Below are positions 1-36,616 of a stretch of DNA of 64,000 nt, piece after piece. A model generated the notes under the pieces. It was not told where the DNA came from. It was given only the letters and a program-made list of their open reading frames with translations, and made no database searches. The stretch comes from an uncultured Bacilli bacterium (lineage in GTDB: Bacteria > Bacillota_I > Bacilli_A > RF39 > UBA660). The position numbers were made by a program, and so were the translations under genes. Within the stretch, counting starts at the first letter, position 1; each line of letters opens with the position of its first letter. Where the stretch lies: NCBI GenBank assembly GCA_947631515.1, contig CANRLP010000001.1, positions 223 to 64,222 on the forward strand. The letters are read 5' to 3'.

Positions 1-2328
1 TATAAAATTAAGTTTATCAACATCAAGATTTTTATTAACTATTATTTTATTATCACTAATCAACTTGATTAATTCATTAGGCAATCCATAATCCATCATG
101 TCTTGATTTACAGTATCACACATTCCATTTTCAAAAAACATTGCAATTTTATATGGATTTATATCATCAGGATTTATATTAATCACTTTATTTTTAGTAA
201 CAAAAAGTTTATATATGCATGCAAAGAAATTAAGATAATATGGTATTTTATATTGCATAACATCAGAAATAAATTTAAAAGTGTCATTATAAACTTTGTT
301 ATCGTTTATGCTCATATCACTATTAATATAACTTAATATCCATTTTTTTTCATCACTAATTAATCTAACTAACTTATCTTTATCGTTATTTAAATAATTT
401 TTTTTACTTATGTTATCAATAATATCCTGAATATGTTTTTTCTTATAATATAATATTTCTTTTATGTTAGTAAACGAATGTAACTTATATAATCCCTTCC
501 ATACAAATGATCCGTTTGATGAAAAAGGTCTTATTTCTCCAACCTTGGTTTGAAAGATATTAATATTTTGAGTTTCAAAAGCATATTTCAAAATATTAAA
601 AATTACTTCTAGACTTTCAGCAATATTATTCCTATCATCACTTATTATATTATCAATCAATTTTTTACAATTTAAAATTTCATTACTGTCCATGTTTTTA
701 AAATAGTTGTATAGAACAAGTTTCCACAATTTTGGAACATTTAATGCAATATTTAATTCTTGTTCAGACAAACATAAAGTTTTTTGTAATTGAATAATAT
801 CCTTTTTCCTATTCAATTCATAATCATTCAAGAATTCATCTTCTATCATATCAATTTCATAATCATCTCTAACTACATCAGATATTTCATAGTTAGGATT
901 ATTTAAAAATATATCTGCTTTTTTCGCTCTATCCAAAATATCATATATATTTTTATTTATGGCTAAAATATTACCAATTGGAGATTCACCAAATCTTCCC
1001 GCTCTACCCATAACATTCAGCAAATCAATATTTTCTAATTTAACCGATTTTGCAGTAAAAACGCTTGTTATTATTATGTTTTCTGCATTGCTATTTACAC
1101 CCTCAACAAATGAAGTTGTAACTAATAAACTTGATATAACTTTATCATTAAATAATCTAATTATTTCTTTCTTTATATATCTTGGAATTGGTGACATGTA
1201 TATTCCAATACCTTTTTCTAGCCCTTTAATTACTTCCCATACCTGTAAATTTTCTACAGTATAGTTATTACATAAATGCTTGTAAAAAATATTAAACCTA
1301 GGATTTTTATTCAGTATTCCACAATCATATTCACAATTATTAATAATTTCAGATGCTGTTGACGAATTGGGAATATATACAATATTTTGCTTTCCAATCA
1401 ATCCTTTTAAGATTTTAATAGTTTTAGTTGGTACATTATCATCCGATAAATAAGATGATTTATTGATTTTAAAGAAATTATTAAATTCTTTTTGAGTGCT
1501 TATACAATATAATTCATGATTAATATAATCTGTTTTTCTAATTATGCTTTTAATTCCATATTTGTCAACAAAATTTTTCATTGATGGAGTCAAACAGTAT
1601 GCATATGGAGACAAAAAAATACATTTAGAATTAGAATTTGCTACTAATTCTAGCGATTTTCTGAATTTGTAAGATCTATTATTAACAACATCCGAAACAT
1701 ACCTATTTCTTGCATTCACTATCTTATACATTTCATCCATAACTAATAAATCTATTTTAAAATCATGATAAATTGAATTAAACATTAAAAATCTCTCAGG
1801 AGTAAGTATTAATAAATTTCTACTAAAATAATCAATTCGTGGAATTGTTGAAATTTTATAATCTAAATTAAATTCTTTATTTAATCTTAAAAACTTAATA
1901 TATAATTCTTCAATAAGAGAATTAGTTGGAATTATATATATCACATTATTAAATTCTTGATAATTACAAATCAAAAATTCATTAACCAAACTCGTTTTAC
2001 CAAATGAAGTTGGTGCTGAAATAAGCATTTTATTATTATTTTTAATTTCATCTAACAATGAAAGTTGTTCTATATTTAAATAATTAAATTGCTTCGACTT
2101 AAAGCATCCCATAATAAGTGATAATTTATTTGAATCAGAAAATTGCAAATAATCAAATTTTAAATACTTATCAAATCCAAATAACATTCCATTGTTAATT
2201 ATCATCATGATTAAGTCACGATTTTCTTCCGGATTTAAAAGTAATACATTCAAATCATTTATTATTTTGTTGCTATCATTTGTTATTGAAAATTCGTTAA
2301 GATCATTTAATACTTGTAATCTATCCAT
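1..2328 (-). CDS. SF2 DExH-box helicase, HamB-like (candidate Hachiman defence helicase); N-terminus at 2328, C-terminus runs off the window
   Basis: I translated the whole minus-strand frame from ATG (2326-2328) to position 1 and found no stop (>775 codons). It is absent from the ORF track because no stop lies in the window. Motif I ISAPTSFGKT (~2000-2030), motif II LLVMDEMY (~1715-1740), motif V VTTSFVEGVN (~1100-1130), motif VI MGRAGRFG (~985-1010). The start overlaps the upstream gene by 8 nt. Confidence 0.8.
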   Translation of the reverse strand, partial: MDRLQVLNDLNEFSITNDSNKIINDLNVLLLNPEENRDLIMMIINNGMLFGFDKYLKFDYLQFSDSNKLSLIMGCFKSKQFNYLNIEQLSLLDEIKNNNKMLISAPTSFGKTSLVNEFLICNYQEFNNVIYIIPTNSLIEELYIKFLRLNKEFNLDYKISTIPRIDYFSRNLLILTPERFLMFNSIYHDFKIDLLVMDEMYKIVNARNRYVSDVVNNRSYKFRKSLELVANSNSKCIFLSPYAYCLTPSMKNFVDKYGIKSIIRKTDYINHELYCISTQKEFNNFFKINKSSYLSDDNVPTKTIKILKGLIGKQNIVYIPNSSTASEIINNCEYDCGILNKNPRFNIFYKHLCNNYTVENLQVWEVIKGLEKGIGIYMSPIPRYIKKEIIRLFNDKVISSLLVTTSFVEGVNSNAENIIITSVFTAKSVKLENIDLLNVMGRAGRFGESPIGNILAINKNIYDILDRAKKADIFLNNPNYEISDVVRDDYEIDMIEDEFLNDYELNRKKDIIQLQKTLCLSEQELNIALNVPKLWKLVLYNYFKNMDSNEILNCKKLIDNIISDDRNNIAESLEVIFNILKYAFETQNINIFQTKVGEIRPFSSNGSFVWKGLYKLHSFTNIKEILYYKKKHIQDIIDNISKKNYLNNDKDKLVRLISDEKKWILSYINSDMSINDNKVYNDTFKFISDVMQYKIPYYLNFFACIYKLFVTKNKVININPDDINPYKIAMFFENGMCDTVNQDMMDYGLPNELIKLISDNKIIVNKNLDVDKLNFI

Positions 2329-3217
2329 ATAATTTCACCATATTATTCTTTAATAAAACTGAATCATTGGTTGTTGGTATAAATACTATTTCAATACTAT
2401 AGTTCTTAATAGTAGTTAATCCAATGGTTTTATCAAATGTATCTATTATATCTTTGTAATATTTTTCTATTTCATCAGGTTTTCTATAATTGGATTGGAA
2501 AATTGCAAAATACACAAATTTAAAACTATAATCTAAGTCATTCATTATATCAATAAATTGTTCATTCTTTTGAGCTATTATTAAATTAATCTTATTTAAA
2601 CATTCAATAATACCTTCAGAATATGTTCTTTCCATTGAATCGCTTTTTTTCATTGCAAAACCACAGTAACTATTAATAATTTCTGAATTTAAATGGCCAT
2701 GCTCACCATTAATGTCCGAAATTAAATCGCTTTTAGCAGCTGACAGTGTTGAAACAAATTTTGCTTCTGATAGTACAATTTCTAACTTATCATTGTTTAA
2801 TGAGCAGCCAATACAATCAATTCCTTTAAATTCTAATTTATCTCTATATATACCTTTAGAAGCGTAACAAGCAAGAATTTTTTTAGAACAAACAATTCGA
2901 GTATAAAAATCTAATAATAATTCTCCAAAAACTCCACTGGTATTTACATCTTTTCTCTTTATGTCATTTTTCCATAAAATTTTTGATTTTTCTATTAAAA
3001 ATTCTTCTTCGACTTTGTAATATTTTAGCATACCATAACTATCTGCATAAAATGGTAAATACATATTAAATGTTTTAGTAAAATAAACTATCTCGTTATT
3101 ATAGTCATATGTATAAAGTTTACAATAGTTTCTATTTGATAATTGAATTTCTTTATAAAATAATAATTTTTTATAATTCTTTGTATAATAATTTAATAAT
3201 TCCCCATATACATCCAT
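2321..3217 (-). CDS. HamA-like (DUF1837-like) putative PD-(D/E)xK nuclease partner of the helicase
   Basis: 298-aa ORF directly upstream of the helicase, overlapping it by 8 nt. GGGAG RBS 8 nt before the ATG at 3217. Candidate nuclease triad GID...(x12)...LSEAK. The small-protein-plus-SF2-helicase architecture matches Hachiman. Domain identity not verified. Confidence 0.5.
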   Translation of the reverse strand: MDVYGELLNYYTKNYKKLLFYKEIQLSNRNYCKLYTYDYNNEIVYFTKTFNMYLPFYADSYGMLKYYKVEEEFLIEKSKILWKNDIKRKDVNTSGVFGELLLDFYTRIVCSKKILACYASKGIYRDKLEFKGIDCIGCSLNNDKLEIVLSEAKFVSTLSAAKSDLISDINGEHGHLNSEIINSYCGFAMKKSDSMERTYSEGIIECLNKINLIIAQKNEQFIDIMNDLDYSFKFVYFAIFQSNYRKPDEIEKYYKDIIDTFDKTIGLTTIKNYSIEIVFIPTTNDSVLLKNNMVKLYG

Positions 3218-3375
3218 ATTCGAACTCCCAAATGTAATTTATATATTATATTTTATCACAAATAATTTATATTTAATAATTTTATCTCGAAGAAGGTTAT
3301 TTTACTACGATGTTCTTTTTTACCTCCTGCATTTATGTGATTAGACACAACTATTACATCATTTCTCTTACCATA

Positions 3376-3603
3376 TTAATCTTGTATTCTTTTAGGCCTA
3401 ACATCAAGCTCTAACGTTTCATTATTAGTTCGAGATAATTTATTATCAATTCCTAATTGATTTAGTTGATTATGCATGTATTCACTAATCTTCAAAGTTA
3501 AATCTTTTTCTGTAATCCCGTTAGCTATTGTGCCGGGGTCTTCTCCTCCATGGCCACTGTCAATTACAACCTTTTTAGTTACTCTATCATCCATGTTTAT
3601 CAC
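3376..3603 (-). pseudogene. truncated N-acetylmuramoyl-L-alanine amidase (Amidase_3) fragment, 75 aa
   Basis: VIDSGHGGEDPG motif and following residues align to the N-terminal ~75 aa of CwlD-type amidases (compare the intact paralog at 6816-7475). The frame stops after ...ELDVRPKRIQD, where a ~200-aa catalytic domain should continue. Confidence 0.6.
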
Positions 3604-3739
3604 CTAATATAAAGTATGTTTTTTAGCTATTTGGTGAAAATTTTATAAAGTTAATTTTTAATACTACATTATTACAAGAGATCGATAAACAGTCTTATTA
3701 ACGATACGTCGTTAATTGTTTGCAGTAAAAAAGCAACTA

Positions 3740-4828
3740 TTAACTAGCTGCTTCACTAAGTTCTATTGTAACTGTTTTTAATTCATTATTTCGATAAAAG
3801 GAAATGTTAACCTTATCACCAATATTATGTTTATATAATTGATATTTTAAATAAGCTAAACTACTAACATCATTATCTTCTATTTTAACGATTACATCGC
3901 CATTTTTTAAACCAGCTTTATCTGCAGGGCTATTTTTTTCAACACTTTCTATATATACGCCACTATCAATATCACTATTTAAAATATTCAAATCTGATAA
4001 ATTTATCATAGAAATTCCTAAATAAGGTCTTTCAATTTTTTTACCACTTTCTAAACTTTCTGCATATTTTAAAGCATCTTCAATAGGTATAGCAAATCCC
4101 ATACCTTCAATTGAACTACTGGCTAGTTTCATTGAAGTAATACCAATTATTTGACCATTAGAATTAGCTAAAGGTCCACCACTATTTCCTGAATTTATAG
4201 CAGCATCTGTTTGTAATACACTCATAACCCAATCGCTAACAGAAGAGTTTGTTAAACTTACCTCAACCAAACGATCTTTACCAGATAAAATCCCTCTAGT
4301 AACACTCCAAGAATAAGCACTACTATCTATAGGAGCTCCAACAGCAAATACTGTATCTCCAAGTCGAGTGGTCGAATTATCGCCAATTTCTGCTACACTA
4401 ATAATATTTTTACTATCTACAGCAAGAACTGCAATATCAGCATATTTATCACTACCTACAATTGTTGCTTCAACAGAAGATTGATTGGTAAATACTACTT
4501 TAACACTTGAACCACTTTCTATAACATGGTTATTAGTTAATATATAAGCTTTACTTCCCGCATCTTTATAAACAAAACCTGTTCCTGTAGCATATAAATT
4601 ACTGCCTTTATATGTCTCAACCGTAACAACGGCATCATAAACCTTTTCAACGGCATCCGCAATACCGGTTTCAGTTACTGTTACATCTTTAACTGTTTTA
4701 GTTACATTATTAGTTACTGTAGTTGGGTAATATCTAACAAGAGCAAACATTGCTAAAGCTCCAACGAAAAAAGCAATTAACAAAACTACTCCTGATTTCA
4801 TTTTATTTTCTGATTTATATTCTTTCAT
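3740..4828 (-). CDS. htrA: HtrA/DegP-family serine protease (TM anchor, trypsin domain, PDZ)
   Basis: N-terminal TM helix, GNSGGPL catalytic serine motif, C-terminal PDZ-like region. Likely ATG at 4828 with AAAGGA RBS. The ORF-track start at 4837 is TTG. Confidence 0.8.
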   Translation of the reverse strand: MKEYKSENKMKSGVVLLIAFFVGALAMFALVRYYPTTVTNNVTKTVKDVTVTETGIADAVEKVYDAVVTVETYKGSNLYATGTGFVYKDAGSKAYILTNNHVIESGSSVKVVFTNQSSVEATIVGSDKYADIAVLAVDSKNIISVAEIGDNSTTRLGDTVFAVGAPIDSSAYSWSVTRGILSGKDRLVEVSLTNSSVSDWVMSVLQTDAAINSGNSGGPLANSNGQIIGITSMKLASSSIEGMGFAIPIEDALKYAESLESGKKIERPYLGISMINLSDLNILNSDIDSGVYIESVEKNSPADKAGLKNGDVIVKIEDNDVSSLAYLKYQLYKHNIGDKVNISFYRNNELKTVTIELSEAAS

Positions 4829-4829
4829 C

Positions 4830-5759
4830 TTAATCAATCCTTTCTATATCCATAAAATTAGCAGGGAATCCCATTTTATCCATAACTTTTCCAATGCTAA
4901 TACTTTTTAACATTCCTTCTAACATACTAACCTCATAATCAATTTCTTTAATCATTTCTGAAAAATCATCTTTACGTAACATTTGTTTTAAAATAATTAT
5001 CAACGAAAATAAATCATCTTTACCATAAATATATTCACCATCCATTTTCGGAATACCTAAACGTTCATGATATTTTGTGTCATTAATTTGGCGTTGAACA
5101 CGATGGTCAAATAAAATTTCTTCATGAGCACATAAATTTCGATAATTAGATAATATTGGTAAATAAAGAGCTAAATCATCAGCATCAACATTAAAAAAAT
5201 TGGCAATTTCTTTTTGATCATTTGGTTTCAAAATAATATATAATTCCCCTACTATTCCAAAAGATAATACTTTTACAGCAATCCAAAGAGGAATATAACC
5301 ATAATTCATTTGATAATGCGCTGTGGCTGTATGAATGGAGGCATTAGCTCTTATTTGGCGTTTCATTTTTTTGATCAAATCATTTACCTGCCGATATTTA
5401 TCATTACTTCGATTAAAATTGGCTGGATTTAAATAATTACTTTCTTTAATTCCATAAGTTCGAGATAAATGATAGGAAATAATACTTTTTAAATTATTTT
5501 CAATTATCAATAAATTTTTAAATAAAATATTACGTATATGACGATCAAAATTAAATACCCCATATAATTCTCGAAAAGTTGAACCCGTAATAAAATGCTT
5601 TTCAGCTGGTGATTTCATAAATAAAGAGCGATACCCATTTATAAAGAAATAATTTTCACGTAAAAGTATCTCTTTAGTTAATGTTTCATCTTCGACAATA
5701 AGACCCTTATTTTTTAATATTTCCACCTGTTCATCTAACGTTTTGAATATCTTATTCAT
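4830..5759 (-). CDS. Abi_2 (AbiD/AbiF-like) abortive infection protein
   Basis: N-terminal FKTLDEQVEILKNKGLIVEDE...YFFINGYRSLF and central IPLWIAVKVLSFGIVGELY match the AbiD/AbiF family consensus. The stop abuts the htrA RBS. Confidence 0.7.
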   Translation of the reverse strand: MNKIFKTLDEQVEILKNKGLIVEDETLTKEILLRENYFFINGYRSLFMKSPAEKHFITGSTFRELYGVFNFDRHIRNILFKNLLIIENNLKSIISYHLSRTYGIKESNYLNPANFNRSNDKYRQVNDLIKKMKRQIRANASIHTATAHYQMNYGYIPLWIAVKVLSFGIVGELYIILKPNDQKEIANFFNVDADDLALYLPILSNYRNLCAHEEILFDHRVQRQINDTKYHERLGIPKMDGEYIYGKDDLFSLIIILKQMLRKDDFSEMIKEIDYEVSMLEGMLKSISIGKVMDKMGFPANFMDIERID

Positions 5760-5861
5760 ATGATCACCTTATTGTTTGATTATATCACATCAACTATCTG
5801 TTAGTATATATTTTTTAAATGATGTTTATGTTATAATATTGTGAAAGGATTGTGAAATTTT

Positions 5862-6827
5862 ATGCCTCTAATAACTACTCATAATTATTTTGCAAATGAT
5901 GTTTTTAATATAATTCCTAAAAAGATTAGTCAACAATTCTCTGATAAAAAAGGGGTATATGAATTGTTCGCTCAAGGTTTTGATTTATTTCAATTTTATG
6001 ATTTTTTTCGTCTTAAAAGAGAAAATTTATTAGATTATTGTCACAATCATTATACCGATCTATATTTTTTAAATTATATAAAAAATTTAAAAAAGTTAAA
6101 TTATCTTCAAAATCCTGAATTTTTAGCAGCTTTATATGGTCATTTAACTCACTATGTTCTAGATAGTAATTGCCACCCTTATATTGTTTATAAAACTGGT
6201 ATATGGAATCCTAAATTAAAAGAAACTCACAAATACAATGGATTACACTCTAAAATGGAAATGCAAATTGATGCTTATTTTTATGAACAAAAAAATCATA
6301 AGCCTTTTGAAAACTTTAAAATTCATAAATACTTAATTACCAAAGATAAACTTAGTAAAGAATTAATTAACCATTTGAATACTGTTTACTTAGAAACTTT
6401 CTCTATTAAAAATGGAGGTAAAAAATATAATATTGGCAAACGAAATATGTATTATTCTTACAAATTTTTAATTGAAGATAAAACTGGTATTAAAACTAAT
6501 TTTTATAAATTTATAGATATTTTTACACCTCACACCAACAAATTTCAAAATTATAGTGCTCATATAAAAGAAATTGACCAAAGCATTTTTAATGAAAATC
6601 ATGATTTTTGGTATCATCCATGGCTTGATAACGCAAAGTACAATACATCTTTTTTTGATATTTATAATAAAGCTTTAGAGGAAGCTAAAAATTTAATAAT
6701 TAAAACTGACGAATTTTTACATGATAAAATAACTGAAAAAGAATATTATACTTACTTACAAGATAAATCATATTTAACCGGATTATCATGGAAGAAAAAA
6801 GGTAAAATTAAACATTTAGAATTTTAA
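5862..6827 (+). CDS. zinc-dependent phospholipase C family protein (PF00882-like), cytoplasmic
   Basis: N-terminal MPLITTHNYF and GHLTHYVLDSNCHPY (HY..D...P.H) His/Asp clusters typical of the Zn-PLC / P1-nuclease fold. Convergent with cwlD and overlapping it by 12 nt. Confidence 0.5.
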   Translation: MPLITTHNYFANDVFNIIPKKISQQFSDKKGVYELFAQGFDLFQFYDFFRLKRENLLDYCHNHYTDLYFLNYIKNLKKLNYLQNPEFLAALYGHLTHYVLDSNCHPYIVYKTGIWNPKLKETHKYNGLHSKMEMQIDAYFYEQKNHKPFENFKIHKYLITKDKLSKELINHLNTVYLETFSIKNGGKKYNIGKRNMYYSYKFLIEDKTGIKTNFYKFIDIFTPHTNKFQNYSAHIKEIDQSIFNENHDFWYHPWLDNAKYNTSFFDIYNKALEEAKNLIIKTDEFLHDKITEKEYYTYLQDKSYLTGLSWKKKGKIKHLEF

Positions 6828-7475
6828 ACTTCCAATCGCTCGAGCAATTATTTTGGCTAATTTTTGTTGATAATCTTTAGTTATCAACAACGCTCTTTCG
6901 CGAGGATTTGATAAAAAACCACATTCTATCAACACGCCAGGAATATTTAACTTATCGTACATATAAGTTTTGATAGGTATCTTTTTTATTTCACGATCTG
7001 ATTTTAAAGACTTATTTAAGGCATTTTGAATTTGTTTGGCAATATCTTCATTACTTGTTTTTTTATTGTTATAAAAAACTTGAGGTCCAAAATAACTAGA
7101 ATCTTCTAAATAATTTAAATGAATTGAAAAATAGTAATTAGCTTTACTTTCATTAATTATTTTTATTCGATTGTCAAAATCGCTTTTTTTACGCATATAA
7201 GCATTAGGTTTAGATAAATCATAATCGCCACTACGAGTTAATATAACACTAGCTCCTAATTTACTTAATTCTTTTTCTAGCTCTAAAACTATTGCCAAAT
7301 TAATATCTTTTTCATAAATGTTTTTATACATAGTGCCAGGGTCGAGCCCACCATGACCACTATCTAAAATAATTACTTTTCCTATTAAGGGAAGACTTGC
7401 AAAAACAATTTTATTTGCCAAAAAACAAATTGCTACTAAAAAAAGAATGCATACTTTTATTAAATAGTTTTTCAT
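6816..7475 (-). CDS. cwlD: germination-specific N-acetylmuramoyl-L-alanine amidase CwlD-like
   Basis: Signal/TM N-terminus, ILDSGHGGLDPG motif, position downstream of rpsI as in Bacillus. Confidence 0.8.
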   Translation of the reverse strand: MKNYLIKVCILFLVAICFLANKIVFASLPLIGKVIILDSGHGGLDPGTMYKNIYEKDINLAIVLELEKELSKLGASVILTRSGDYDLSKPNAYMRKKSDFDNRIKIINESKANYYFSIHLNYLEDSSYFGPQVFYNNKKTSNEDIAKQIQNALNKSLKSDREIKKIPIKTYMYDKLNIPGVLIECGFLSNPRERALLITKDYQQKLAKIIARAIGSLKF

Positions 7476-7555
7476 ACTTAATATATATGCATTTCATAGT
7501 TAATATTACTTTTGAAATAATTATCTTTATCAACTTTTAAAAATTTTTGTAACAA

Positions 7556-7583
7556 AAAAAGCCCACAAAAGGCTTTTTGGAAA
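7556..7583. terminator. bidirectional intrinsic terminator (AAAAGCC-CACAAAA-GGCTTTT) downstream of rpsI
   Basis: 7-bp GC-containing stem flanked by an A-run and a T-run. Confidence 0.5.
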
Positions 7584-7599
7584 TATTGAATACGTAATT

Positions 7600-8034
7600 T
7601 TAACGTTTTGAGAATTGTGGTGCACGACGTGCTTTCTTAAGACCTGGTTTTTTACGTTCTTTAACTCTTGGATCACGAGTTACAAATCCTGCAACTTTTA
7701 AACGTTTACGATAAGCATCTTCACTAGTTTGATCAGAATTAGCATCATATTTTAATAATGCTCGAGTAATACCTAGACGAATTGCTCCAGTTTGACCAGA
7801 AAATCCGCCACCTTTAACATTAACAGTAATATCGAATTTATTTTCATTATTAGTTAAAACTAAAGGTTGTTTTAAATCCATTACTAAAGTAGCATAAGGC
7901 ATATATTCGTTAACATCTACACCATTAACTAAAATAATACCTGTACCACTAGTAAGAGTTACTTGAGCACTAGAACGTTTTCTACGTCCAGTAGCACTCC
8001 AACTTTGTTTTGTAGTAGTTTTTGCAGTAGCCAT
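7600..8034 (-). CDS. rpsI: 30S ribosomal protein S9
   Basis: [12 protein letters not shown] ... [13 protein letters not shown]-terminus. Confidence 0.95.
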
Positions 8035-11151: not shown

Positions 11152-11457
11152 TTAATCTTTCAATTTTTTACGTTTTATTTTACAAAAATTTCGCAATTTT
11201 TTACTATATAAACTAGCTGCAAAAAAACCTAAAAATAACATTATAATAAAATATATATGAACTACACCATAGTTAATATGATACATTGCTAAAATATACA
11301 AAAGGGCGATATCAAATATAAATACAATTGTTATTAAATAACGCAAAATTACAGGATATTTCCAAACTAATTTATAATTTAATTTACTGACAATATAAAA
11401 AAAATTACCAAAAATAAAAGAAAAAAGTAAAGAAATAATTTGAATTTTATAATCCAT
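11152..11457 (-). CDS. yabQ: spore cortex biosynthesis membrane protein YabQ
   Basis: Small multi-TM protein between yabP and divIC, as in Bacillus. Confidence 0.6.
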   Translation of the reverse strand: MDYKIQIISLLFSFIFGNFFYIVSKLNYKLVWKYPVILRYLITIVFIFDIALLYILAMYHINYGVVHIYFIIMLFLGFFAASLYSKKLRNFCKIKRKKLKD

Positions 11458-11756
11458 TATTTAAATAACTTCGTAAAGAATCCTTCTTTATTTTGATTTA
11501 ATTCTCCATCTAAATAACTAAAACTATCTATTTTTCCTTTTATTTTTACGTTTCCATCATGAGTATCAAGTTTTAAAATTTCTAAATTATGGCCTTTTAA
11601 TAAAATAACTCCCATATTACTTTCCATTAAAAATTCTTCATTATCAAAACTAGTTATTTTTTTAATTCCCGTTAAAAAGATTTCTCTTCGATCATTAATT
11701 CTTAATTCATGACTGCCTAGCATAATGTTGTCCACTTCTTTATCCATTATTAACAC
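11457..11756 (-). CDS. yabP: sporulation protein YabP
   Basis: LRINDRREIFLTGIKKITSFD...ILLKGHNLEI match the YabP family. Confidence 0.75.
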   Translation of the reverse strand: MLIMDKEVDNIMLGSHELRINDRREIFLTGIKKITSFDNEEFLMESNMGVILLKGHNLEILKLDTHDGNVKIKGKIDSFSYLDGELNQNKEGFFTKLFK

Positions 11757-11823
11757 GCTCCCATTACACTATATGAATTAATTTTATATTTATGCAAAAA
11801 AAATAAACCTATTTCTAGATTTA

Positions 11824-12081
11824 TTATTCTGCTTTTTCGTATTCGTCCAAAATGGCTTTTTGGAACATCGCACGTATATCAGTATTAATTGGATGAGCTA
11901 TATCTCTATATTCACCAGTAGCTGTTTTTCTACTAGGCATAGCAATAAATAATCCATTGTCTCCTTCAATAATTCTGATATCATGAATTGCAAAGGCATT
12001 ATCAAGTACTACAGTTGCAATACCTTTCATTCTGTTTCCTTCTTTTTCAAATTTACGAACCGTTACTGATGTAATTTCCAT
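11824..12081 (-). CDS. spoVG: septation protein SpoVG
   Basis: MEITSV..RK......[47 protein letters not shown] is near-identical to the SpoVG consensus. Confidence 0.92.
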
Positions 12082-16899: not shown

Positions 16900-17185
16900 C
16901 CTCTTTTCTATTTACCATTATTTTTATTTAATTGCATTACAAACATAGTTCCCATTCTAAAAAATAAAAAAAATCATAAACTAAGGGCGAAAAAACCGCG
17001 GTACCACCTTAATTCATGATTTTATCATGCACTTTAAATTCGTAACGAGAATAACTCGATTTAACTCCAGAACCATCTTCATATTTCATAATCTACTTGT
17101 TTTCATCAACCACAAGCTTTCTATAAGATTATTAAAATATTACTCTTTCTTTCTCCGTTAATTATTTGTATAGTAACACAAAAAA
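16900..17185 (-). promoter_or_regulatory. T-box riboswitch leader of metG
   Basis: Minus-strand AATTAAGGTGGTACCGCGG (revcomp of 16996-17013) matches the T-box consensus AATTAGGGTGGTACCGCG. ~300-nt leader with AGAGA-like and AUG-containing Stem I candidates, and a T-rich tract after the motif. Confidence 0.8.
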
Positions 17186-27151: not shown

Positions 27152-27159
27152 CACCATAA

Positions 27160-27250
27160 AAAAAGTGCACACGAATAGGGATTGATATGGCTGCTGTCTT
27201 CCAACTCTGACCAGATTACAATATATCCGTTGCACTTTGTAATGATAACA
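27160..27250 (-). ncRNA. ffs: signal recognition particle RNA (small 4.5S type)
   Basis: Minus-strand CUGGUCAGAGUUGGAAGACAGCAGCCA matches SRP domain IV (CAGGUCAGGUCCGGAAGGAAGCAGCC). Closing helix AAAGUGCA/UGCACUUU. Position between gyrA and tadA-dnaX, as scr is in Bacillus. Confidence 0.7.
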
Positions 27251-27344: not shown

Positions 27345-29789
27345 TTAATCTATTTCTTCATTTTCTATAGATTCTTCAGTTTTATCAACCAAACTTAAAG
27401 TAGAAACTTGTTGATTATCTTTTAAATTTATTAAACGTACACCTTGAGTTACCCGGCCTAATACATTAATTTGATCTAATGGAACTCTTATAATCATTCC
27501 AGTATCGGTTACTATAATCAAATCATGATTTTCTTTTGCTAGTTTAAATGCTGCCATATCACCATTTTTATCAGTAATATTTAAAGCTTTGACACCTTTA
27601 CTTCCTCTCTTAGTTTGTCGATATTCACGAACATTTGTTTGCTTGCCATAACCTTTTTTCGTTACTATAATCAAAGAATCATTATCAGTAGCTTTTTCGG
27701 CACCAATACAAGTACTTCCTTCTAAAGTTATACCTTTAACTCCACTAGCAGTTCGCCCCATAACTCTTACTTCATCTTCGGAAAATTTAACCATTCTACC
27801 ATTGCTAGATCCTAATAAAATTGAATCATTTCCTGTAGTCTTTTGAACTGATATTAATTCATCATTATCTTTTAAACTAATACAAATTTTACCGCTTGTT
27901 CGAATATTTTCGAATTCGCTAATAGCAGTTCTTTTTACAATTCCTTGTTTTGTTGCAAAAAGTAAATATTTTGCAGAATCTTCTCTTTGAATACTTAAAA
28001 TAGAATTAATTTTTTCTTCTTTATCAATTTGAAGTAAGTTAATAATAGGTAATCCCTTAGATTGACGACTAAATTCAGGAATTTCATAACCTTTTAATCT
28101 ATAAACCTTTCCTTTATTTGTAAAGAACAAAATGTAATCATGAGTAGATAATGATTCTAAATGTTCAACAAAATCTTCTTCATTTGTATTCATACCCTTA
28201 ACACCTACACCACCACGTCTTTGTGATTTAAATGTATCAGCTGTTGTTCTTTTAATATAACCATTATGTGTAAGAGCAATCATTATATCTTGTTCTGGAA
28301 TTAAAGATTCATCTTCAATAAATTCAATTGCTGACATATCAATATTTGTTCTTCTTTCATCAGCGTATTTATTTTTAATTTCAATCAATTCTTCACGTAT
28401 GATGGCCAATACTTTTTCTTCGCTAGCCAAAATACTACGATATTCATCAATAGCCTTCAATAAATCAGCAAGTTCATTTTCAATTTTATCTCTTTCTAAA
28501 CCAGTTAAACGACGTAATCTCATATCTAAAATAGCTGTAGCTTGAATATCATCAAGTCCAAATCTACTCATTAATTGTTCTTTTGCCACTACATCTGTTT
28601 CAGCTTCTCTAATTATTTTAATTACTTCATCTAAATTATCTAAAGCAATTTTCAAGCCTTCTAAAATATGAACACGCTCTTCAGCTTTATTTAAATCATA
28701 TTTTGTACGACGAATAATAATTTCTTTTTGATAATCAATATATTTAACTATTATATCTTTAAGAGGCAATATTTTTGGACTTTTTTGATCAATCATTAAG
28801 AAATTAATACCATAAGTTGTTTGAAGTTGAGTATATTTATATAAATTATTAAGTACTACATTAGCATTAGCATCCTTTTTTATGTAAATAACTACTCGTA
28901 CGGGATTTTCTAAATTTGATTCCTCATGAATGTCACTAATTCCATCAATAATTTTATCACGAACTAATTCGCCAATTCTTGTTTGAAATTCGGCTTTATT
29001 TACTTTATAAGGAAGAGCTGTAACAATAATTCTTGTCTTTCCATTAACTTCTTCTATATTCGCTGTACCTCGAATAGTTATTGAACCTCTACCAGTTTCA
29101 TAAGCTTTCTTAATTCCACTATTTCCTAAAATACTAGCACCTGTTGGAAAATCTGGACCTTTAATATATTGCATAAGCCCATCTGTATCAATATCAGGAT
29201 TATCTATATATGCAACACATCCATCAACAACCTCTCCTAAATTATGAGGTGGAATATTTGTAGCCATTCCAACTGCAATACCCATTGTTCCATTAACTAA
29301 TATATTAGGAAATCTACTTGGTAAAATAGTTGGTTCATTTTCTGTTTCATCAAAGTTTGGAACAAAATCAACAGTATTTTTATTTAAATCTCGAACCATT
29401 TCCAAAGATAGTTTTGATAACCGAGCTTCGGTATAACGCATGGCTGCGGCACCATCACCATCCATATTACCAAAATTTCCGTGACCATCAACTAACATGT
29501 GGCGATAAGTAAAATTTTGGGCCATTCCAACCATTGCTTCATAAATGGAAGAATCACCATGAGGATGATATTTACCCATAACATCTCCAACTACTCTCGC
29601 ACTCTTACGATGAGGTTTATCGGGAGTATATCCTGCTTCAAACATTGAATACAAAATACGACGATGTACCGGTTTTAATCCATCACGTAAATCGGGGATT
29701 GCACGAGCAACAATAACACTCATGGAATAACGAATAAAAGAATTTTTGAATTCTGATACAATATTATTTTCTACAATTTTATCCATCAA
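27345..29789 (-). CDS. gyrA: DNA gyrase subunit A
   Basis: [15 protein letters not shown], active-site YxxT region (MRYTEARL), C-terminal beta-pinwheel repeats. Confidence 0.97.
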
Positions 29790-29798
29790 CTACACCTC

Positions 29799-31718
29799 CT
29801 AAATATCCAAATCCTCAGCTTCATGGCCATGTTCTTCAATATATTGTTTTCTTGGTAAAACATCATCACCCATAAAATCACTAATGATTTTATCAGCTTC
29901 CATCGCATCTTCAACCGTAACTCTTCTTAAAATACGATTACTTATATGCATTGTTGTATCTCTTAAATCTTCTGCTTCCATTTCACCTAAACCTTTAAAA
30001 CGTTGAACAATTGGCTTAGCATTACTTGGTAAAGTAGTTCGATAAGACTCTAATTCTTCTTCTGTTTGAAAATATTTATTAGTTTTACCATAAGTTATAC
30101 GGAATAATGGTGGTTGAGCAACATATACATACCCACCTTCAATAATTGGTCTAAAAAAGCGATAAAATAATGTTAATAACAAAATTTGAATGTGAGAACC
30201 ATCAACATCAGCATCGGTCATGATAATTATTTTATGATATCTTAATTTACTTACGTCAAAATCATCGCCGATACCTGTACCAAAAGCCGTAATCATAGTT
30301 CTAATTTCTTCATTAGATAATGCTCTATCAAGACGAGCCTTTTCTACATTTAAAATTTTACCACGTAAAGGCAATATAGCTTGAGTTTGAGGAATTCTAG
30401 CTAGTTTAGCATTCCCTCCGGCACTATCTCCTTCGACAATAAATATCTCCGAAATAGAAGCATCTTTACTTGTACAATCAGCAAGTTTTCCTAACGTATT
30501 TATAGAATCTAAAACTGTTTTTCTTCTTGTAATTTCCCGAGCTTTTTTAGCAGCAAGACGAGCATGTAAAGCCGTCATAGACTTATCAACAATTAATTTT
30601 GCTTCTTCAGGATTTTCCATTAAAAATCTTTCAAAACCTTCACTAAACACATCGTCAGCTATTTTTCTTACTTCACTATTACCAAGTTTCGTTTTAGTTT
30701 GACCTTCAAATTGAGGATCAGGATGTTTACAAGAAATAATCATTGTAAGACCTTCCCTAACATCTTCTCCTGTTAAAGCATCATCATTATCTTTTAAAAT
30801 TTTGGCATTTTTAGCATAATTATTAATAATTCTAGTTAAAGCTCTTTTTACTCCGTCTTCGTGAGTTCCACCTTCATAAGTATTAATGTTATTAGTAAAA
30901 GAATAAAGATTAGCATTATAAGAGTCATTGTATTGCATAGCAACTTCTATTTCAATACCATCCTCAGTTCCTTCAACATATATAACTTCATCATGAAGTA
31001 CTTTTTTATTTTTATTAAGCATTTTTACATATTCAATAATTCCACCATGATACAAAAATTCATCTTTTTTATCTTCTTCACGTTCATCAATTAAAACAAT
31101 TCGAATTCCTTTATTCAAAAAAGCAAGTTCTTGTAAACGTTTAGCTAATGTATCGTAATTATAAATTGTTGTTTCTGTAAAAATTTCTGGATCAGCTTTA
31201 AAAGTTACGGTTGTTCCAGTTCTATTTTCTTCACAAGTTCCAATTTCTTTCAAAGGTTCAACCGGATGGCCACCATTTTCAAATTTTTGATAAAAAATCT
31301 TACCTTCCCTGTAAATAGTAACTTCAAGCCATGTTGATAAAGCATTAACGACACTAGCTCCAACACCATGTAATCCTCCACTAACTTTATAACCACCGCC
31401 GCCAAATTTTCCACCAGCATGCAAAACGGTAAATATTGTTTCAACAGTAGATAAGCCAGTTTTTTGATTGATTCCTGTTGGCATACCTCTTCCATCATCT
31501 TTAACTGTAATTGTATTGCCTTTACCAACAACGACTTCTATATCGTCACAATATCCTGCTAAAGCTTCATCAATAGCATTATCAACAATTTCCCAAACTA
31601 AATGATGCAATCCTTTTTCACTAGTTGTACCAATATACATTCCCGGACGTTTTCTAACAGCTTCTAAGCCCTCTAATACTTGAATATCACTATCATCATA
31701 ATGTTTATTTTCGTCCAT
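29799..31718 (-). CDS. gyrB: DNA gyrase subunit B
   Basis: GHKL ATPase, Toprim [17 protein letters not shown]. Confidence 0.97.
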
Positions 31719-32812
31719 TATTCTACCTCCTCTAATAAACCATTCGAAATAAAAAACTTTTTATAATTTTTATCTTTTAATAAAAATGATAATTTTTCTA
31801 TTTCCGTTGTTGTTATAAATGTTTGAATATCTTGTTCAATAAATTGCAAAATATTTTTGATTTTTTCAACATCTAATTCACTTAATAAATCATCTAATAT
31901 TAATATGGGAGTAACATTTTTCTCTTTTTTAAAAATACATATTTCACTAAATTTCCAAGCAATTACCGCATTTTTTTGTTGACCTTCAGATCCATAATCT
32001 TTTAAATCATATTCATCTAAATATAAATGAAAATCATCATGATGAATACCAATATTGGTTTTGCCAAATGCTAAATCTCTTTTCAAATTTTTATTATATA
32101 AGTTAATTAATTCCTTTCGAGATTTATTTTGATAATCACTATCATATTGAACTACCAAATCCCCATCTAAAGCTATTTTTTTATAAATATCTTTTAAATA
32201 TAAGTTAAGATTTTTTAAATAATTTTCGCGCATTTGATAAATTTCTAAGCCTGAATCAATTAATTTTTCCGTAATAACTTGTAAATAAGTCGTCATAGCA
32301 TTACCATTTAAATACATTTGTTTTAAATAAGCATTACGAATTTTCAGAAGTTTATTATAATCATTTAATTTTTTTAAATACTCAATATGAAGTTGAGACA
32401 AACCAATATTCAAATATTTTCGACGAATACTGGGAGTATCTTTAATCATTTTTAAATCATTCGGATTAAATAAAACTACATTAATTTTCGAAACATAATC
32501 ACTAATTCTTGTTATCTTATTATTATTAATTTTAACTTTTTTACCATCATTATTAATAATAATCTTGAAAGTAGTTTGAAATTCATCATTTAACATACCT
32601 TCTATTTTAGTCAAATTTGTTCCGGATTTTATTAAGGTTTTATCATTTATTTGGCGAAAACTTCTTGTAATTGCAAGTACATATATTGCTTCTACTAAAT
32701 TTGTTTTACCACTACCATTTTTACCATAAATAATATTTAAATGATTATCAAAGGTAACTGCTAATTGATTATAATTTCGAAAATTTAGTAATTTCAAATT
32801 CTGTATTTGCAT
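31718..32812 (-). CDS. recF: DNA replication and repair protein RecF
   Basis: GKNGSGKTN Walker A, C-terminal signature and Walker B. Confidence 0.95.
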
Positions 32813-32844
32813 TTTTGGCCTCTTTTACGCTCATATAATAAAAT

Positions 32845-32874
32845 AATAGGTATTTATGTACTCCTATACCTATT
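32845..32874 (-). terminator. hairpin after comK-like gene (AATAGGTAT...ATACCTATT, 9-bp stem)
   Basis: Inverted repeat in the 77-nt gap between the comK-like stop and recF start, followed by a T-rich tract on the minus strand. Confidence 0.35.
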
Positions 32875-32889
32875 AAAATTATAACATAT

Positions 32890-33363
32890 TTAAGCATTTT
32901 TTTGTATCTTTTTTTCAAGTTTTCGGCCATTTAAGACAGATTCTAAGCGCGTAGCCCTCATAACTTGATTATCCACAATTCCATATGTGGTATCTAATGA
33001 TAATTTATCGCCATTTTTAAATACTACTATTAAATGATTTTTTTCATAATAGTAGCGATCAATACTACTAAGTCTTAACCACGAGCATTCTGGAAGTCTA
33101 GGAGAAGTTGTGGGAAAAAATATTATACTATTGCTTTCTTCAACTATAATGGGAGCTTTGTAAGAAACTCCAATTAAATTTTCTGTTCCTTTTTTTCTTC
33201 CAGCTAAACTACTTCCAAAATATTCACAACTTTCTTCCATAATTTCATTAGCACACTTATTAACAATGAAATTAGAATCTTCTTCATATACTCGTGTTTT
33301 ATTTCCCATAGCATATAAAGCAACGGTATTATTATTAATTTCATAATTTTCCATCCATTTCAC
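32890..33363 (-). CDS. comK: ComK-family competence transcription factor homolog
   Basis: YEINNNTVAL, FGSSLAGRKKGT, KAPIIVEESNSIIFFPTTSPRLPECSW align to B. subtilis ComK (FGSSYAGRKAGT; KPPIMVDPSNQIFLFPTLSSTRPQCGW). AGGGGG RBS. Confidence 0.75.
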   Translation of the reverse strand: MKWMENYEINNNTVALYAMGNKTRVYEEDSNFIVNKCANEIMEESCEYFGSSLAGRKKGTENLIGVSYKAPIIVEESNSIIFFPTTSPRLPECSWLRLSSIDRYYYEKNHLIVVFKNGDKLSLDTTYGIVDNQVMRATRLESVLNGRKLEKKIQKNA

Positions 33364-33409
33364 CCCCTAACTTTGGAAAATTGTTTATTACCTTAACAGA
33401 TAAATATTA

Positions 33410-33445
33410 AATTTTTTGTCGAAAAAAAAGCTTACTAACAATTTA
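33410..33445 (-). terminator. intrinsic terminator after dnaN
   Basis: CTTACTA-acaatt-TAGTAAG hairpin followed by T8 on the minus strand. Confidence 0.6.
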
Positions 33446-33452
33446 GTAAGTT

Positions 33453-34571
33453 TTATTTATTAAATATTGGTAAAACTAGTTGAATTAAAGATTCATCTGT
33501 TAAAGATTTTATAATTATTGGTTTAACATCCGTATTTAGTAAAATTAATATTTCTTCCTCTTTTATAGCTTTTAATGCTTCTAACATATAGCGAGAACTA
33601 AAGTAAATTTCAATATTAGAACTAGCATCTGTATCTACAGTCAATTTTTCTTCAACTTTTCCAATTTCGCTAGCTGATGAAGAAATTTGCATCTCTTTAT
33701 TTTCAATCTTCATTTTAATTATATTTTTATCTTTTCCTTGAGTTAATAAGGCTGCTCTATCTACACTTGCCATAAATTCATCTTTATTCATTTTTATTAA
33801 AATAGCAAATTCAGTTGGAATTAAATTAGAAGTATTAGGATAAGTTCCAGAAAGAAGATTTGTTTGAAATTTTATATTTTTATATTTAAACAACACTTTA
33901 TTACTAAAAATGTGCATTTCAACATTTTCATCATCCGTAATTATTTTTTCTAATTCCATAATATTTTTACCAGGTATAACAATATTTATATCGTTTGTAA
34001 CTGGGGTTGATAACTTAATATTTTTTTTAGCTAAACGATAAGAATCAGTTGCTATAAATATTAAAATATCTCCGGTAATAGTGACATTTATACCTGTTAA
34101 TAGCGGCCGTAATTCTTGATTAGATATAGCAAAAACAGTTTGATTAATTAATGACTTTAAGACATCTCCTTTTAAAATAATTGGATCTTTATGTTCATCT
34201 ATTCTTAAATTTGGATAATCATTAGCATCTAAACAATTCAAATTATATTGGTTATTTTCTGTATAAATTCTAATTTTTAAACCATCTATAACTTCAAAGT
34301 GAATAATATCACTAGGCATTTTTCTTATTATTTCTAATATATATTTACTTTGAATAACTATTGTTCCTGTACTTTCAATACTTTTAATTTCTTTATTACT
34401 AATAAAGGCATTAATCGTAAGTTCACTATCACTAGCAGTTAAAGATAATCCTTCATTGGTTAAATCAAATTTAATTCCATTTAAGACTGGTATTACATTC
34501 TTAGTCGATACTCCTTTTATTACATGATTTAAATTTTCTAATAAAATGTTTTTATCAATTGTAAATTTCAT
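33453..34571 (-). CDS. dnaN: DNA polymerase III beta sliding clamp
   Basis: 372 aa with three-domain beta-clamp architecture, immediately after dnaA. Confidence 0.95.
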   Translation of the reverse strand: MKFTIDKNILLENLNHVIKGVSTKNVIPVLNGIKFDLTNEGLSLTASDSELTINAFISNKEIKSIESTGTIVIQSKYILEIIRKMPSDIIHFEVIDGLKIRIYTENNQYNLNCLDANDYPNLRIDEHKDPIILKGDVLKSLINQTVFAISNQELRPLLTGINVTITGDILIFIATDSYRLAKKNIKLSTPVTNDINIVIPGKNIMELEKIITDDENVEMHIFSNKVLFKYKNIKFQTNLLSGTYPNTSNLIPTEFAILIKMNKDEFMASVDRAALLTQGKDKNIIKMKIENKEMQISSSASEIGKVEEKLTVDTDASSNIEIYFSSRYMLEALKAIKEEEILILLNTDVKPIIIKSLTDESLIQLVLPIFNK

Positions 34572-34726
34572 TGTTCATTCCTTCTTTCTTTTTATTAATT
34601 TATTTTATTATGTTTATAATGCTGTTGATAAAGTGAATAACTCTATTTTTTCTTTATTTTATCGTATTTTAGCTATTTTTTTATTAGTGCATAAGCAAGT
34701 TTATTTTAAGTTAATTATCAACAATA
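34572..34726. promoter_or_regulatory. dnaA-dnaN intergenic DnaA-box cluster / AT-rich unwinding region (oriC part 2)
   Basis: TGTTGATAA (~34644) and TTATCAACA (~34706) boxes in a very AT-rich 155-bp spacer. Confidence 0.55.
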
Positions 34727-36118
34727 TTAAATTCTATTCTTAATTTCATTAATTTCAAATTCTATTTTTTTATTTTCCTTAATCTCCTTTTCAATTTTTT
34801 CATAAGCATGAATTACTGTTGAATGATCTCTTCCGCCAAATTCAAAACCTATTTTAGGAAAAGTTTCTTCGGTTAGCATTCTTGCTAAATACATGCCAAT
34901 TTGTCGTGGATAAGCAATTTTATTACTCCTTTTCTTACCTTTCAAATCTTCAACTGTTAAATTGTAATAACTTGCTACAGCTTGTTGAATATTTTGAATA
35001 CTATTTTCTGAGTAAATGTTATTACCTATATAGTCTTTAATTGCTTCATTGGCAAATTCTAAATCTATTTTATCTGGTACCATCATAGCTGTATAAGCCA
35101 TTAATCTATTTAAAGTTCCTTCTAGAAATCTTATATCATTAGGACAACAATTAGCAATAAATTCAATAACTGTTTCATCTAATTTGTCTGCTATACTGGT
35201 ATTTTTAATTTTTTGTTTTATGATTCGACAACGTAAATCTAAGTCTGGAGGATAAATATTAACAGGTAATCCCCACATAAAACGGCTTTGTAATCTTTCT
35301 TCTAATAATTTTAAATCCATAGGACTTCGATCAGAACTAATAATAATTTGTTTATTAGCTTGATGTAAAATATTAAAAGTATAAAAGAATTCTTGTTGGG
35401 TTTTTTCGGCCCCTACTAAGTATTGAATATCATCAATAATTAAGACATCAACATTTCGATATTTGTTTTTAAAATTATTGGCATAATCAATGGAATTCGG
35501 CCCTTTTTCAACATAAGCAATTCCCGTAAAATCATTCATAAACATATCACTTGTTGTGTATAAAACTTTTTTATTGGTCGTTTGAGTTATAAAGTTTCCA
35601 ATGGCATGCATTAAATGAGTTTTACCTAATCCACTTTTTCCATATATAAATAAAGGATTATGTAATTTTCCAGGTTGTTCAGCTACTGCCATCGCCGCAA
35701 TTTTAGCCAAACGATTTGTATCACCTACTACAAAGTTATCAAAATTAAGATTTGGCTTTAAATTACTTTCCCAAACTTCATTCTGCTCTTCTTTTTCTTT
35801 GGTTTGTGGATAAGTATCTATAGGAGTATTTTTATTTTCGATTTCATCTTCTAAAACAAATTTAATATCATAATTTATATTGGTTATTTTTAATAAAATA
35901 TCTTCAATTAATGAATAATAATTGTCACTTAAAATATTTCGGTGAATATCCATAGGGACTTGAATAGTTATTAAATTATTTTCAATGCTAATTAATTTTA
36001 AGTCATTAAACCAAGCATAATAAGATGCTGAATTTATCTCATTTTTAATATTTTCTAAAAATTTATTCCATATTTCTTCAACTAACAAATCCATCACCCC
36101 GCTTGTTATTATTACCAA
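34727..36118 (-). CDS. dnaA: chromosomal replication initiator DnaA
   Basis: AAA+ GKSGLGKTHL, box VII, C-terminal DNA-binding signature. Confidence 0.97.
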   Translation of the reverse strand: MVIITSGVMDLLVEEIWNKFLENIKNEINSASYYAWFNDLKLISIENNLITIQVPMDIHRNILSDNYYSLIEDILLKITNINYDIKFVLEDEIENKNTPIDTYPQTKEKEEQNEVWESNLKPNLNFDNFVVGDTNRLAKIAAMAVAEQPGKLHNPLFIYGKSGLGKTHLMHAIGNFITQTTNKKVLYTTSDMFMNDFTGIAYVEKGPNSIDYANNFKNKYRNVDVLIIDDIQYLVGAEKTQQEFFYTFNILHQANKQIIISSDRSPMDLKLLEERLQSRFMWGLPVNIYPPDLDLRCRIIKQKIKNTSIADKLDETVIEFIANCCPNDIRFLEGTLNRLMAYTAMMVPDKIDLEFANEAIKDYIGNNIYSENSIQNIQQAVASYYNLTVEDLKGKKRSNKIAYPRQIGMYLARMLTEETFPKIGFEFGGRDHSTVIHAYEKIEKEIKENKKIEFEINEIKNRI

Positions 36119-36575: not shown

Positions 36576-36598
36576 CCACTAATTATGTGGTTTTTTTA
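36575..36598 (+). terminator. hairpin plus T-run between rpmH and rnpA (terminator/attenuator)
   Basis: ACCAC-TAATTAT-GTGGT followed by T8. The ORF-track GTG start for rnpA (36587) lies inside this hairpin. Confidence 0.45.
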
Positions 36599-36616
36599 TT
36601 AAAAAGGATGATTTTA

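Follow-up and report, generated by a model that had tools for sequence, protein, structure and literature searches.

Proteins of the AbiD/F family are at present viewed as HEPN RNase toxins that are silenced by an upstream non-coding RNA (ncRNA) with the abiF motif, and as kin of the Cas13 ancestor (PMC12373285, PMC13064643, PMC3710099). The role of many of their chromosomal copies is described as an open question in a passage of one of these studies (PMC12373285). In Bacillus subtilis, the CssRS system regulates htrA genes under secretion and heat stress (PMC12826053), and a passage of a further study gives TTTTCACA as the canonical CssR box (PMC6749698). Here, we describe a 64,000-nucleotide (nt) stretch of contig CANRLP010000001.1 from an uncultured Bacilli bacterium (referred to below as the window), in which a gene for an Abi_2 protein of the AbiD/F family lies directly upstream of htrA and behind a putative CssR-box-like promoter. 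We consider, with moderate confidence, that Abi_2 and htrA are the two genes of an operon that is inherited vertically and driven by a stress promoter, and that its RNase serves the host in a function linked to envelope stress. The window is strongly AT-rich (G+C of about 25%), and the clade concerned consists of uncultured, small-genome gut Bacilli, one member of which, Candidatus Coprovivens, has been placed in the order RF39 of the GTDB.

The gene pair, its control region and its divergent neighbor comprise the following features, given with their lengths in amino acids (aa), ribosome-binding site (RBS) and promoter-like elements:

3740..4828, minus strand: htrA, membrane-anchored serine protease of the HtrA/DegP family, 362 aa from ATG 4828; second cistron of the predicted operon
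4826..4844, minus strand: Abi_2/htrA junction, read from the sequence
4830..5759, minus strand: Abi_2, AbiD-F HEPN protein of 309 aa; first cistron of the predicted operon, with R207-N-L-C-A-H212 encoded at about 5126-5141
5770-5764, minus strand: RBS of Abi_2, AAGGTGA
5779..5787, minus strand: P2, promoter-like extended -10 TGATATAAT, about 20 nt 5' of the Abi_2 start codon
5803..5834, minus strand: P1, promoter-like, with a -35-like ATAACA (5834-5829), an 18-nt spacer and TATATA(CT) (5810-5803)
5841..5856, minus strand: direct repeat TTCAC-N6-TTCAC, TTTCACAATCCTTTCACA, likely a response-regulator site, CssR-box-like
5829-5837, plus strand: possible extended -10 TGTTATAAT of the phospholipase C (PLC)-like gene, on the strand opposite to the P1 -35 and overlapping it
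5862..6827, plus strand: zinc-PLC-fold protein of 321 aa, divergent from Abi_2

The Abi_2-htrA gene pair and its conservation

The assignment of the first cistron to the Abi_2 family, which had been made in the original prediction, was borne out by a Pfam search: PF07751 matched the 309-aa protein at 1.5e-39 over profile positions 1-184 of 184, and the AbiD model of PADLOC matched it at 5.7e-56. At the sequence level the protein matched one solved structure, PDB 8vz6 (4.4e-14), whose RNSCCH, an RNxCxH motif, aligns with R207-N-L-C-A-H212. The HEPN motif R-(N/H/D)-x3-H is present and the catalytic R-x4-H is intact. An AlphaFold2 model built on 41 orthologues (predicted local distance difference test score of 84.7) had a sole significant PDB match, to the PbAbiF dimer in complex with ncRNA (8vz6_A), which extended over the full length with an E value of 1.5e-10 and template modeling scores of 0.74/0.77. 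By sequence, motif and fold, the 309-aa protein is a full-length member of the AbiD/F HEPN family, with predicted RNase activity.

One genome per species was scanned with the HtrA protein, resulting in 80 loci with HtrA identities from 76% down to 52%. Abi_2 was found by tblastn directly upstream of htrA in 70 of these 80 species-representative loci. In the 10 exceptions the HtrA proteins have differing N-termini and are encoded in other contexts: in three, a response regulator-histidine kinase pair lies upstream of htrA, with TTTAAG-N5-TTTAAG boxes of the streptococcal CiaR type, and in five, htrA lies behind a tRNA gene or adjoins metG. Direct repeats of the form TTTAAG-N5-TTTAAG were observed 5' of both htrA and the response-regulator gene in L030, L035 and L037. 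The patchy distribution in a mobile or defense-island context that is a trait of AbiD/F genes was not found for this one, which is fixed in the 70 loci.

In the window, a single base separates the Abi_2 stop from the htrA start (TAA at 4832-4830, G, ATG at 4828-4826), and the htrA Shine-Dalgarno sequence GAAAGGA (4844-4838) is located within the final Abi_2 codons. The tight coupling that had been noted at this junction therefore stands, with the correction that the Abi_2 stop abuts the start codon of htrA and not its RBS, which is inside the Abi_2 gene. A mechanical open reading frame (ORF) call places the htrA start at TTG 4837 instead, which corresponds to an 8-nt overlap with Abi_2. In all 70 loci, htrA starts between -17 and +9 nt from the Abi_2 stop, values of 47-79 nt in the junction table being cases in which the script picked an internal ATG, and a GAGG/AAGGA motif is found in the last Abi_2 codons across the same loci. 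A consensus scan for intrinsic terminators was negative both at the Abi_2/htrA junction and 3' of htrA. We infer from this arrangement that the two genes are co-transcribed and translationally coupled.

The downstream partner has the features of a canonical HtrA. It matches Trypsin_2 (3.3e-27) and PDZ_2 (1.8e-22) of Pfam as well as HtrA/DegP models of NCBIfam at up to 3.3e-78 (TIGR02037, 2.3e-75), and the catalytic triad motifs TNNHV, DIAVL and GNSGGPL as well as an N-terminal hydrophobic segment (residues 13-32) are kept in the 70 orthologues. An extracytoplasmic location is predicted for its protease domain. The view that the coupling of an Abi gene to htrA is unusual agrees with the relevant part of the survey of abiF/abi_2 neighborhoods in 7,828 genomes, in which HtrA is not mentioned (PMC12373285), and the papers retrieved by a literature search that combined Abi_2 and HtrA all dealt with the human ABI2 gene.

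Several lines of evidence bear on the mode of inheritance of the pair. Homologues of Abi_2 number in the thousands, and identity declines gradually among the best 120, from 89% to 63%, with a length of 307-317 aa in nearly every case, which suggests vertical descent and not the behavior of a patchy defense gene. The contigs of three homologues (77%, 65% and 67% identical) all carry the trio of divergent PLC-like gene, Abi_2 and HtrA, and their outer flanks differ. Over the 70 loci, mean pairwise identity was 0.80 for RpsI, 0.65 for Abi_2, 0.56 for HtrA, 0.54 for the CwlD-like amidase and 0.39 for the PLC-like protein. Abi_2 identity exceeds HtrA identity in 98% of pairs, and the two sets of pairwise identities correlate with a Pearson coefficient of 0.79, as expected under joint inheritance. 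In the 70 species, 97 of the 309 Abi_2 positions are at least 97% invariant, among them those of R207-N-L-C-A-H212; R207 and H212 themselves are conserved at 97% or more over the 70 loci and invariant in the alignment of 41 sequences. The ratio of nonsynonymous to synonymous substitution rates (dN/dS) of Abi_2 was 0.02-0.18 in the seven pairs with unsaturated synonymous sites, and it was below that of HtrA in five of the seven. HtrA and CwlD both evolve faster than Abi_2.

Searches for relatives elsewhere point to a discrete, apparently non-mobile subfamily. When a library clustered at 50% identity was searched exhaustively, the orthologue group was represented by one full-length representative (57% identical) and fragments, and the next full-length Abi_2 family members were at most 41% identical. 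Among phages the best match reached 33% identity and among plasmids 29%, and peptide patterns specific to the subfamily identified no relative among 2.9 million viral contigs. The nearest outgroup, P0127, differs in its behavior: identity among its own homologues falls steeply, from 72% to 46%, and P0127 and two of its relatives, members of the outgroup at about 40% identity, adjoin endolysin, repressor, integrase or SocA-type genes in prophage-like contexts, are preceded by 200-380 nt of non-coding DNA, and in none of the three cases are next to htrA. A metagenome scan with the P0127 protein gave no matches.

The control region upstream of Abi_2 and the proposed role of the operon

About 100 nt 5' of Abi_2 are conserved in most loci. 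They contain, in this order, TTCAC-N6-TTCAC(A), a -35-like TTAACA/ATAACA, a spacer of about 18 nt, a -10-like TATA(C/A)T, the extended -10 TTTGTGATATAAT and the RBS AATAGGTGA. The direct repeat has a single match in the 64-kb window, where 0.04 would be expected by chance, and 59 exact matches in 1.08 Mb of related loci, of which 55 are directly upstream of Abi_2. The P1 consensus is conserved over 67 anchored loci and the extended -10 TGNTATAAT in 69 of 70, and the distance between direct repeat and extended -10 is 68 nt in 36 loci. Both P1 and P2 are putative promoters. A hairpin centered on the TGATATAATCA palindrome was considered and rejected; it is not kept where the flanking bases differ, and the element is read as a promoter.

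The htrA loci that lack Abi_2 offer the most informative comparison. In L056, L057, L063, L066 and L085, TTTTCACAA-N4-TTAACA is found about 50 nt 5' of the htrA start codon, and the extended -10 is absent from all five; TTTTCACAAAATATTAACA is identical to the letter in L056, which lacks Abi_2, and L060, which possesses it. Since the same box and -35 directly precede htrA in these Abi-less loci, the most economical interpretation places Abi_2 between htrA and a conserved stress promoter of htrA; Abi_2 may in addition possess its own promoter. Abi_2 may have been inserted at this position, or it may later have been lost from the Abi-less genomes.

Boxes of the TTTTCACA type stand at the putative promoter of an htrA operon, as they do in the CssRS regulon. 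NCBIfam holds no CssR-specific model, and its models cannot separate CssR from other OmpR-family regulators. A second TTCAC-N6-TTCAC was observed in one species, 1 nt after the stop of a histidine kinase gene (L003:2421-2436, L004:5928-5943, L005:2421-2436), and this kinase belongs to a response regulator-histidine kinase pair just upstream of the cwlD-PLC-Abi_2-htrA cluster. The pair may be the cognate two-component system, for which this arrangement is suggestive only.

A further question concerns the ncRNA antitoxin of the family. Searches for the abiF motif RF03085 were negative for window positions 3000-8000 (E<=10), for the complete window (E<=1) and for 11 related loci, to which the gathering score was applied. 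This negative is weak, since the same Rfam scans were also blank upstream of the three prophage-borne relatives with long leaders. The available space provides a stronger argument: as only about 20 nt separate the extended -10 from the start codon, and the boxes and the upstream promoter fill what remains of the spacer of about 100 nt, there appears to be no room for a promoter-ncRNA-terminator unit like RCd22.

The principal alternative is that Abi_2 is an ordinary AbiD/F abortive-infection defense gene, similar to a type III toxin-antitoxin system, that became fixed in the lineage, with its position in front of htrA a by-product of genome compaction and an unrecognized RNA or protein silencing the toxin until phage arrives. 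The full family membership of the protein by sequence, motif and fold is in agreement with this view, as are the facts that its characterized relatives are all antiphage HEPN toxins with an RNA antitoxin (PMC12373285, PMC13064643) and that Abi_2 adjoins the defense hotspot described below; the Rfam negative is not decisive. The view is, however, difficult to reconcile with order-wide vertical inheritance at a single site, where the closest relatives outside the subfamily show turnover instead, with an Abi_2 that is more conserved than the neighboring housekeeping protease and has a low dN/dS, with the failure to find mobile copies in searches of phages, plasmids and viral contigs, and with an intergenic region that is filled with promoter-like elements. 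We regard it as possible and rather doubtful.

In our preferred reading, in which the operon serves the host, Abi_2 and HtrA would be made together under a CssRS-like envelope/secretion stress response, in addition to a basal promoter, and the RNase would be tied to envelope stress instead of being a mobile phage-defense toxin. It might throttle or process cytoplasmic RNA while HtrA clears misfolded proteins outside the membrane. Given the slow, vertical evolution at a single site, a host role appears more likely than a plain antiphage role, and the two are not exclusive. It seems that a member of a phage-defense toxin family has been fixed in a housekeeping operon. A far-reaching version of this idea is that RF39-like Bacilli have exapted an AbiF-type HEPN toxin, from a family regarded as the Cas13 ancestor, for the cytoplasmic side of their response to envelope/secretion stress: it would be induced with HtrA by a CssR-like regulator, and it would cut mRNAs or other RNAs to lower the translational or secretory load, without an RNA antitoxin and as a bacterial counterpart of IRE1-dependent mRNA decay. 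We put this version forward as a speculation that is unlikely to hold in full.

A number of points weigh against the preferred reading. Co-transcription, promoters and regulator are all deduced from sequence, and no OmpR-type regulator is encoded in the window. Every characterized AbiD/F protein is an antiphage toxin, and a gene that is fixed in a lineage can still serve in defense; adjacency in small, compact genomes need not mean shared function. The Rfam negative counts for little here, given its blank controls, and the 80 loci sampled are those, out of at least 504, that the HtrA-based scan could reach.

A second alternative, which we consider improbable, is that Abi_2 and HtrA form a two-component defense system, with the HEPN protein as sensor or signaler and the trypsin-like protease as effector, in the manner of defense systems that combine a sensor and a protease domain. 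The invariant adjacency in the 70 loci and the translational coupling predicted there would fit such a system, and the HtrA protease domain matches protease-containing PADLOC models such as RT-Protease_XI and LmuA, but these matches cover the generic trypsin fold only. Moreover, HtrA possesses the standard housekeeping anchor of Gram-positive bacteria, the catalytic triad and the PDZ domain, its protease is predicted to be extracytoplasmic, and htrA genes whose products have a similar identity to the HtrA of the window, behind the same promoter box, exist without Abi_2.

The PLC-like neighbor and the defense hotspot

The genes on the minus strand follow each other from right to left in the order truA, rplM, rpsI, CwlD-like gene, Abi_2, htrA, Amidase_3 stub, HamA and helicase. 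The PLC-like gene is interposed between the CwlD-like gene and Abi_2 and is the only plus-strand member of this series. The features that flank the operon and its divergent neighbor are:

6816..7475, minus strand: CwlD-like Amidase_3 gene (PF01520, 6.4e-44), which converges with the PLC-like gene
3290..3603, minus strand: Amidase_3 remnant, truncated and frameshifted, lower bound approximate; edge of the variable region
1..3217, minus strand: Hachiman-like pair, HamA at 2321-3217 and helicase at 1-2334 (cut by the window start); accessory cargo in this genome

The proposed membership of the 321-aa protein in the zinc-dependent PLC family was recovered by Pfam, Zn_dep_PLPC (PF00882) matching it at 9.1e-10 and 39.2 bits against a cut-off of 26.8. 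Residues H7, D41, H97, D101, H105, H129, E133 and D137 are invariant in 42 homologues, and the PLC/P1-nuclease fold with its conserved His/Asp/Glu metal ligands was recovered for the protein. No signal peptide or transmembrane segment was found in the protein, which is therefore predicted to be cytoplasmic. It begins with an invariant M-P, and helix 1 starts at residue 4; the mature N-terminus in the metal site that characterizes secreted PLCs was not found. The C-terminal half of about 160 aa is helical and without a recognized relative. The protein is best described as a putative metalloenzyme of the PLC/P1 fold.

The PLC-like gene runs divergently to Abi_2 in about 45 loci, is missing from about 23 and follows htrA in two. 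This pattern does not correspond to the behavior of an island gene but to that of a lineage-specific, semi-conserved divergent neighbor that shares the control region. The conserved ATTATAACA element can be read as the Abi_2 -35 on one strand (5829-5834, minus) and as the PLC-like extended -10 TGTTATAAT on the other (5829-5837, plus), so that the Abi_2 and PLC-like promoters would be arranged face to face; the RBS region of the PLC-like gene overlaps the TTCAC boxes. Binding of a regulator could affect the Abi_2 and PLC-like genes in opposite ways, and the two may be subject to reciprocal regulation.

At its other end, the PLC-like gene (plus) converges with the CwlD-like gene (minus), and the 12-nt overlap that had been reported between them is confirmed by the coordinates (5862-6827 and 6816-7475). 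The CwlD-like gene is found upstream of Abi_2 in most loci. Its earlier label, cwlD, holds at the level of the Amidase_3 family: TIGR02883 matched at 190.7 bits, below the curated cut-off of 221.55, and the amidase is CwlD-like and not a confirmed equivalog. Homologues of SpoVG and YabP were observed in the conserved upstream neighborhood of relatives (L009/L010, positions 1-621), and the ORFs at 11457-12081 of the window are, by position, putative SpoVG and YabP genes. SpoVG, YabP and the CwlD-like amidase belong to sporulation-associated families and are found here in genomes of about 1.2 Mb.

The region to the left of htrA is of a different nature. The call of a Hachiman-like pair was substantiated by a match of HamA to PF08878 (1.4e-09; 2321-3217), a PADLOC match to HamA and a DEAD domain in the helicase ORF (1-2334). 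HamA had no match in any of 90 related loci. In place of Hachiman, the cargo downstream of htrA consists of AbiEi/AbiEii and PDC-S72 in L013, of Cas9 and two ORFs placed like cas1 and cas2 in L015, of PDC-S72 in L016, of PrimPol and a type IV restriction-like protein (mREase) in L022, of restriction-modification genes and TnpV in L009, and of AAA, S8 protease and Fic in L010; it differs among all loci examined. No integrase was found at the junctions examined downstream of htrA. Amidase_3 N-terminal stubs of 97-118 aa followed by differing cargo are present in L009, L010, L013, L016 and L022, and in L011 the Amidase_3 gene is intact, encoding 453 aa with LysM repeats. In the window, a 75-aa ORF matches Amidase_3 profile positions 1-63 and VVSNHINAGG continues in another frame, so that the frameshifted stub is a decaying remnant.

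The variable defense island therefore begins downstream (left) of htrA, at the truncated amidase, and excludes Abi_2, htrA and the PLC-like gene: variable gene content enriched in defense functions was found downstream of htrA and not for Abi_2-htrA. The original prediction of a defense island at a conserved site was thus correct for the segment to the left of htrA, and its inclusion of the three genes to the right as an accessory patch was contradicted by the synteny comparison, since the occurrence of Abi_2-htrA in the relatives is the outcome that the prediction itself had named as refuting it. That Abi_2, htrA and the PLC-like gene were acquired horizontally as one island with Hachiman is very improbable: Abi_2 does belong to a defense-associated family, only 500 bp separate htrA from Hachiman further downstream, and about a third of the related loci have no PLC-like gene, but 70 of 80 species share the Abi_2-htrA pair together with its promoter region, the composition check against the window detected no foreign signature in the base composition of the three genes, HamA had no match in the related loci and the downstream cargo varies among all the loci examined.

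Other features of the window concern its place in the chromosome. The region 27345-37896 contains dnaA (34727-36118), dnaN, gyrB and gyrA, all on the minus strand, as well as yidC (36940-37896), which is a plus-strand gene; the genes change orientation at about 36.1-36.9 kb, and the GC skew is negative over the 16 kb profiled leftward. The replication origin is probably located at about 36.1-36.9 kb, which would place Abi_2 and htrA at a distance of about 30 kb from oriC, in the same orientation as replication. Rfam matches above the gathering score were a T-box leader (16980-17164, minus), a small signal recognition particle RNA (27156-27241, minus) and a class B RNase P RNA (55301-55641, plus).

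Comparison with known systems

Taken together, the data describe an AbiD/F subfamily that behaves like a housekeeping gene, as it is clade-wide, evolves slowly, has no detectable ncRNA and appears to be wired into an htrA stress operon. It may serve as a concrete case of either a domesticated defense toxin or a defense gene under envelope-stress control. Automated defense finders would call "AbiD" in essentially every genome of the clade, which would inflate counts of defense systems, and the truncated amidase marks a site downstream of htrA that can be used as an anchor for mining variable defense cargo.

Clear differences emerge between the PLC-like protein and the zinc-dependent PLC/S1-P1 nuclease superfamily, represented by B. 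cereus PLC, Listeria PlcB and clostridial alpha-toxin: it has no signal peptide and possesses the additional helical C-terminal half, and solved PLCs share only 11-17% identity with it, there being no sequence-level match in the PDB. A more distant comparison, as an analogy only, is that with IRE1 and RNase L, whose RNase domains were reportedly placed in the HEPN superfamily by Anantharaman et al. in 2013. The common element is a HEPN-superfamily RNase associated with the response to misfolded secretory proteins; Abi_2, in contrast, has no kinase or sensor domain, and its membership in the operon is what links it to such a response.

The AbiF/AbiD/AbiD1 systems, among them PbAbiF of Prevotellaceae (8vz6) and AbiFCd-RCd22 of C. 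difficile, share full-length homology, the R-x4-H motif and a single domain of about 300 aa with the protein described here. They possess an upstream ncRNA, whereas here none was detected in the weak Rfam scans and very little room would be left for one. Abi_2 also differs in that it is a chromosomal gene restricted to a single site, with vertical inheritance and slow evolution, that its identity to family members outside its own subfamily does not exceed 41%, and that it is coupled to htrA behind a CssR-box-like promoter. The CssRS-controlled htrA and htrB genes of B. subtilis are the closest counterpart on the side of the protease: in both cases, a gene for a membrane-anchored HtrA is found behind TTTTCACA-like boxes that abut a sigma-A-type promoter. 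The operon in the window has no regulator gene beside it, its boxes are arranged as a direct repeat, TTCAC-N6-TTCAC, and a gene for a HEPN RNase is located between promoter and htrA.

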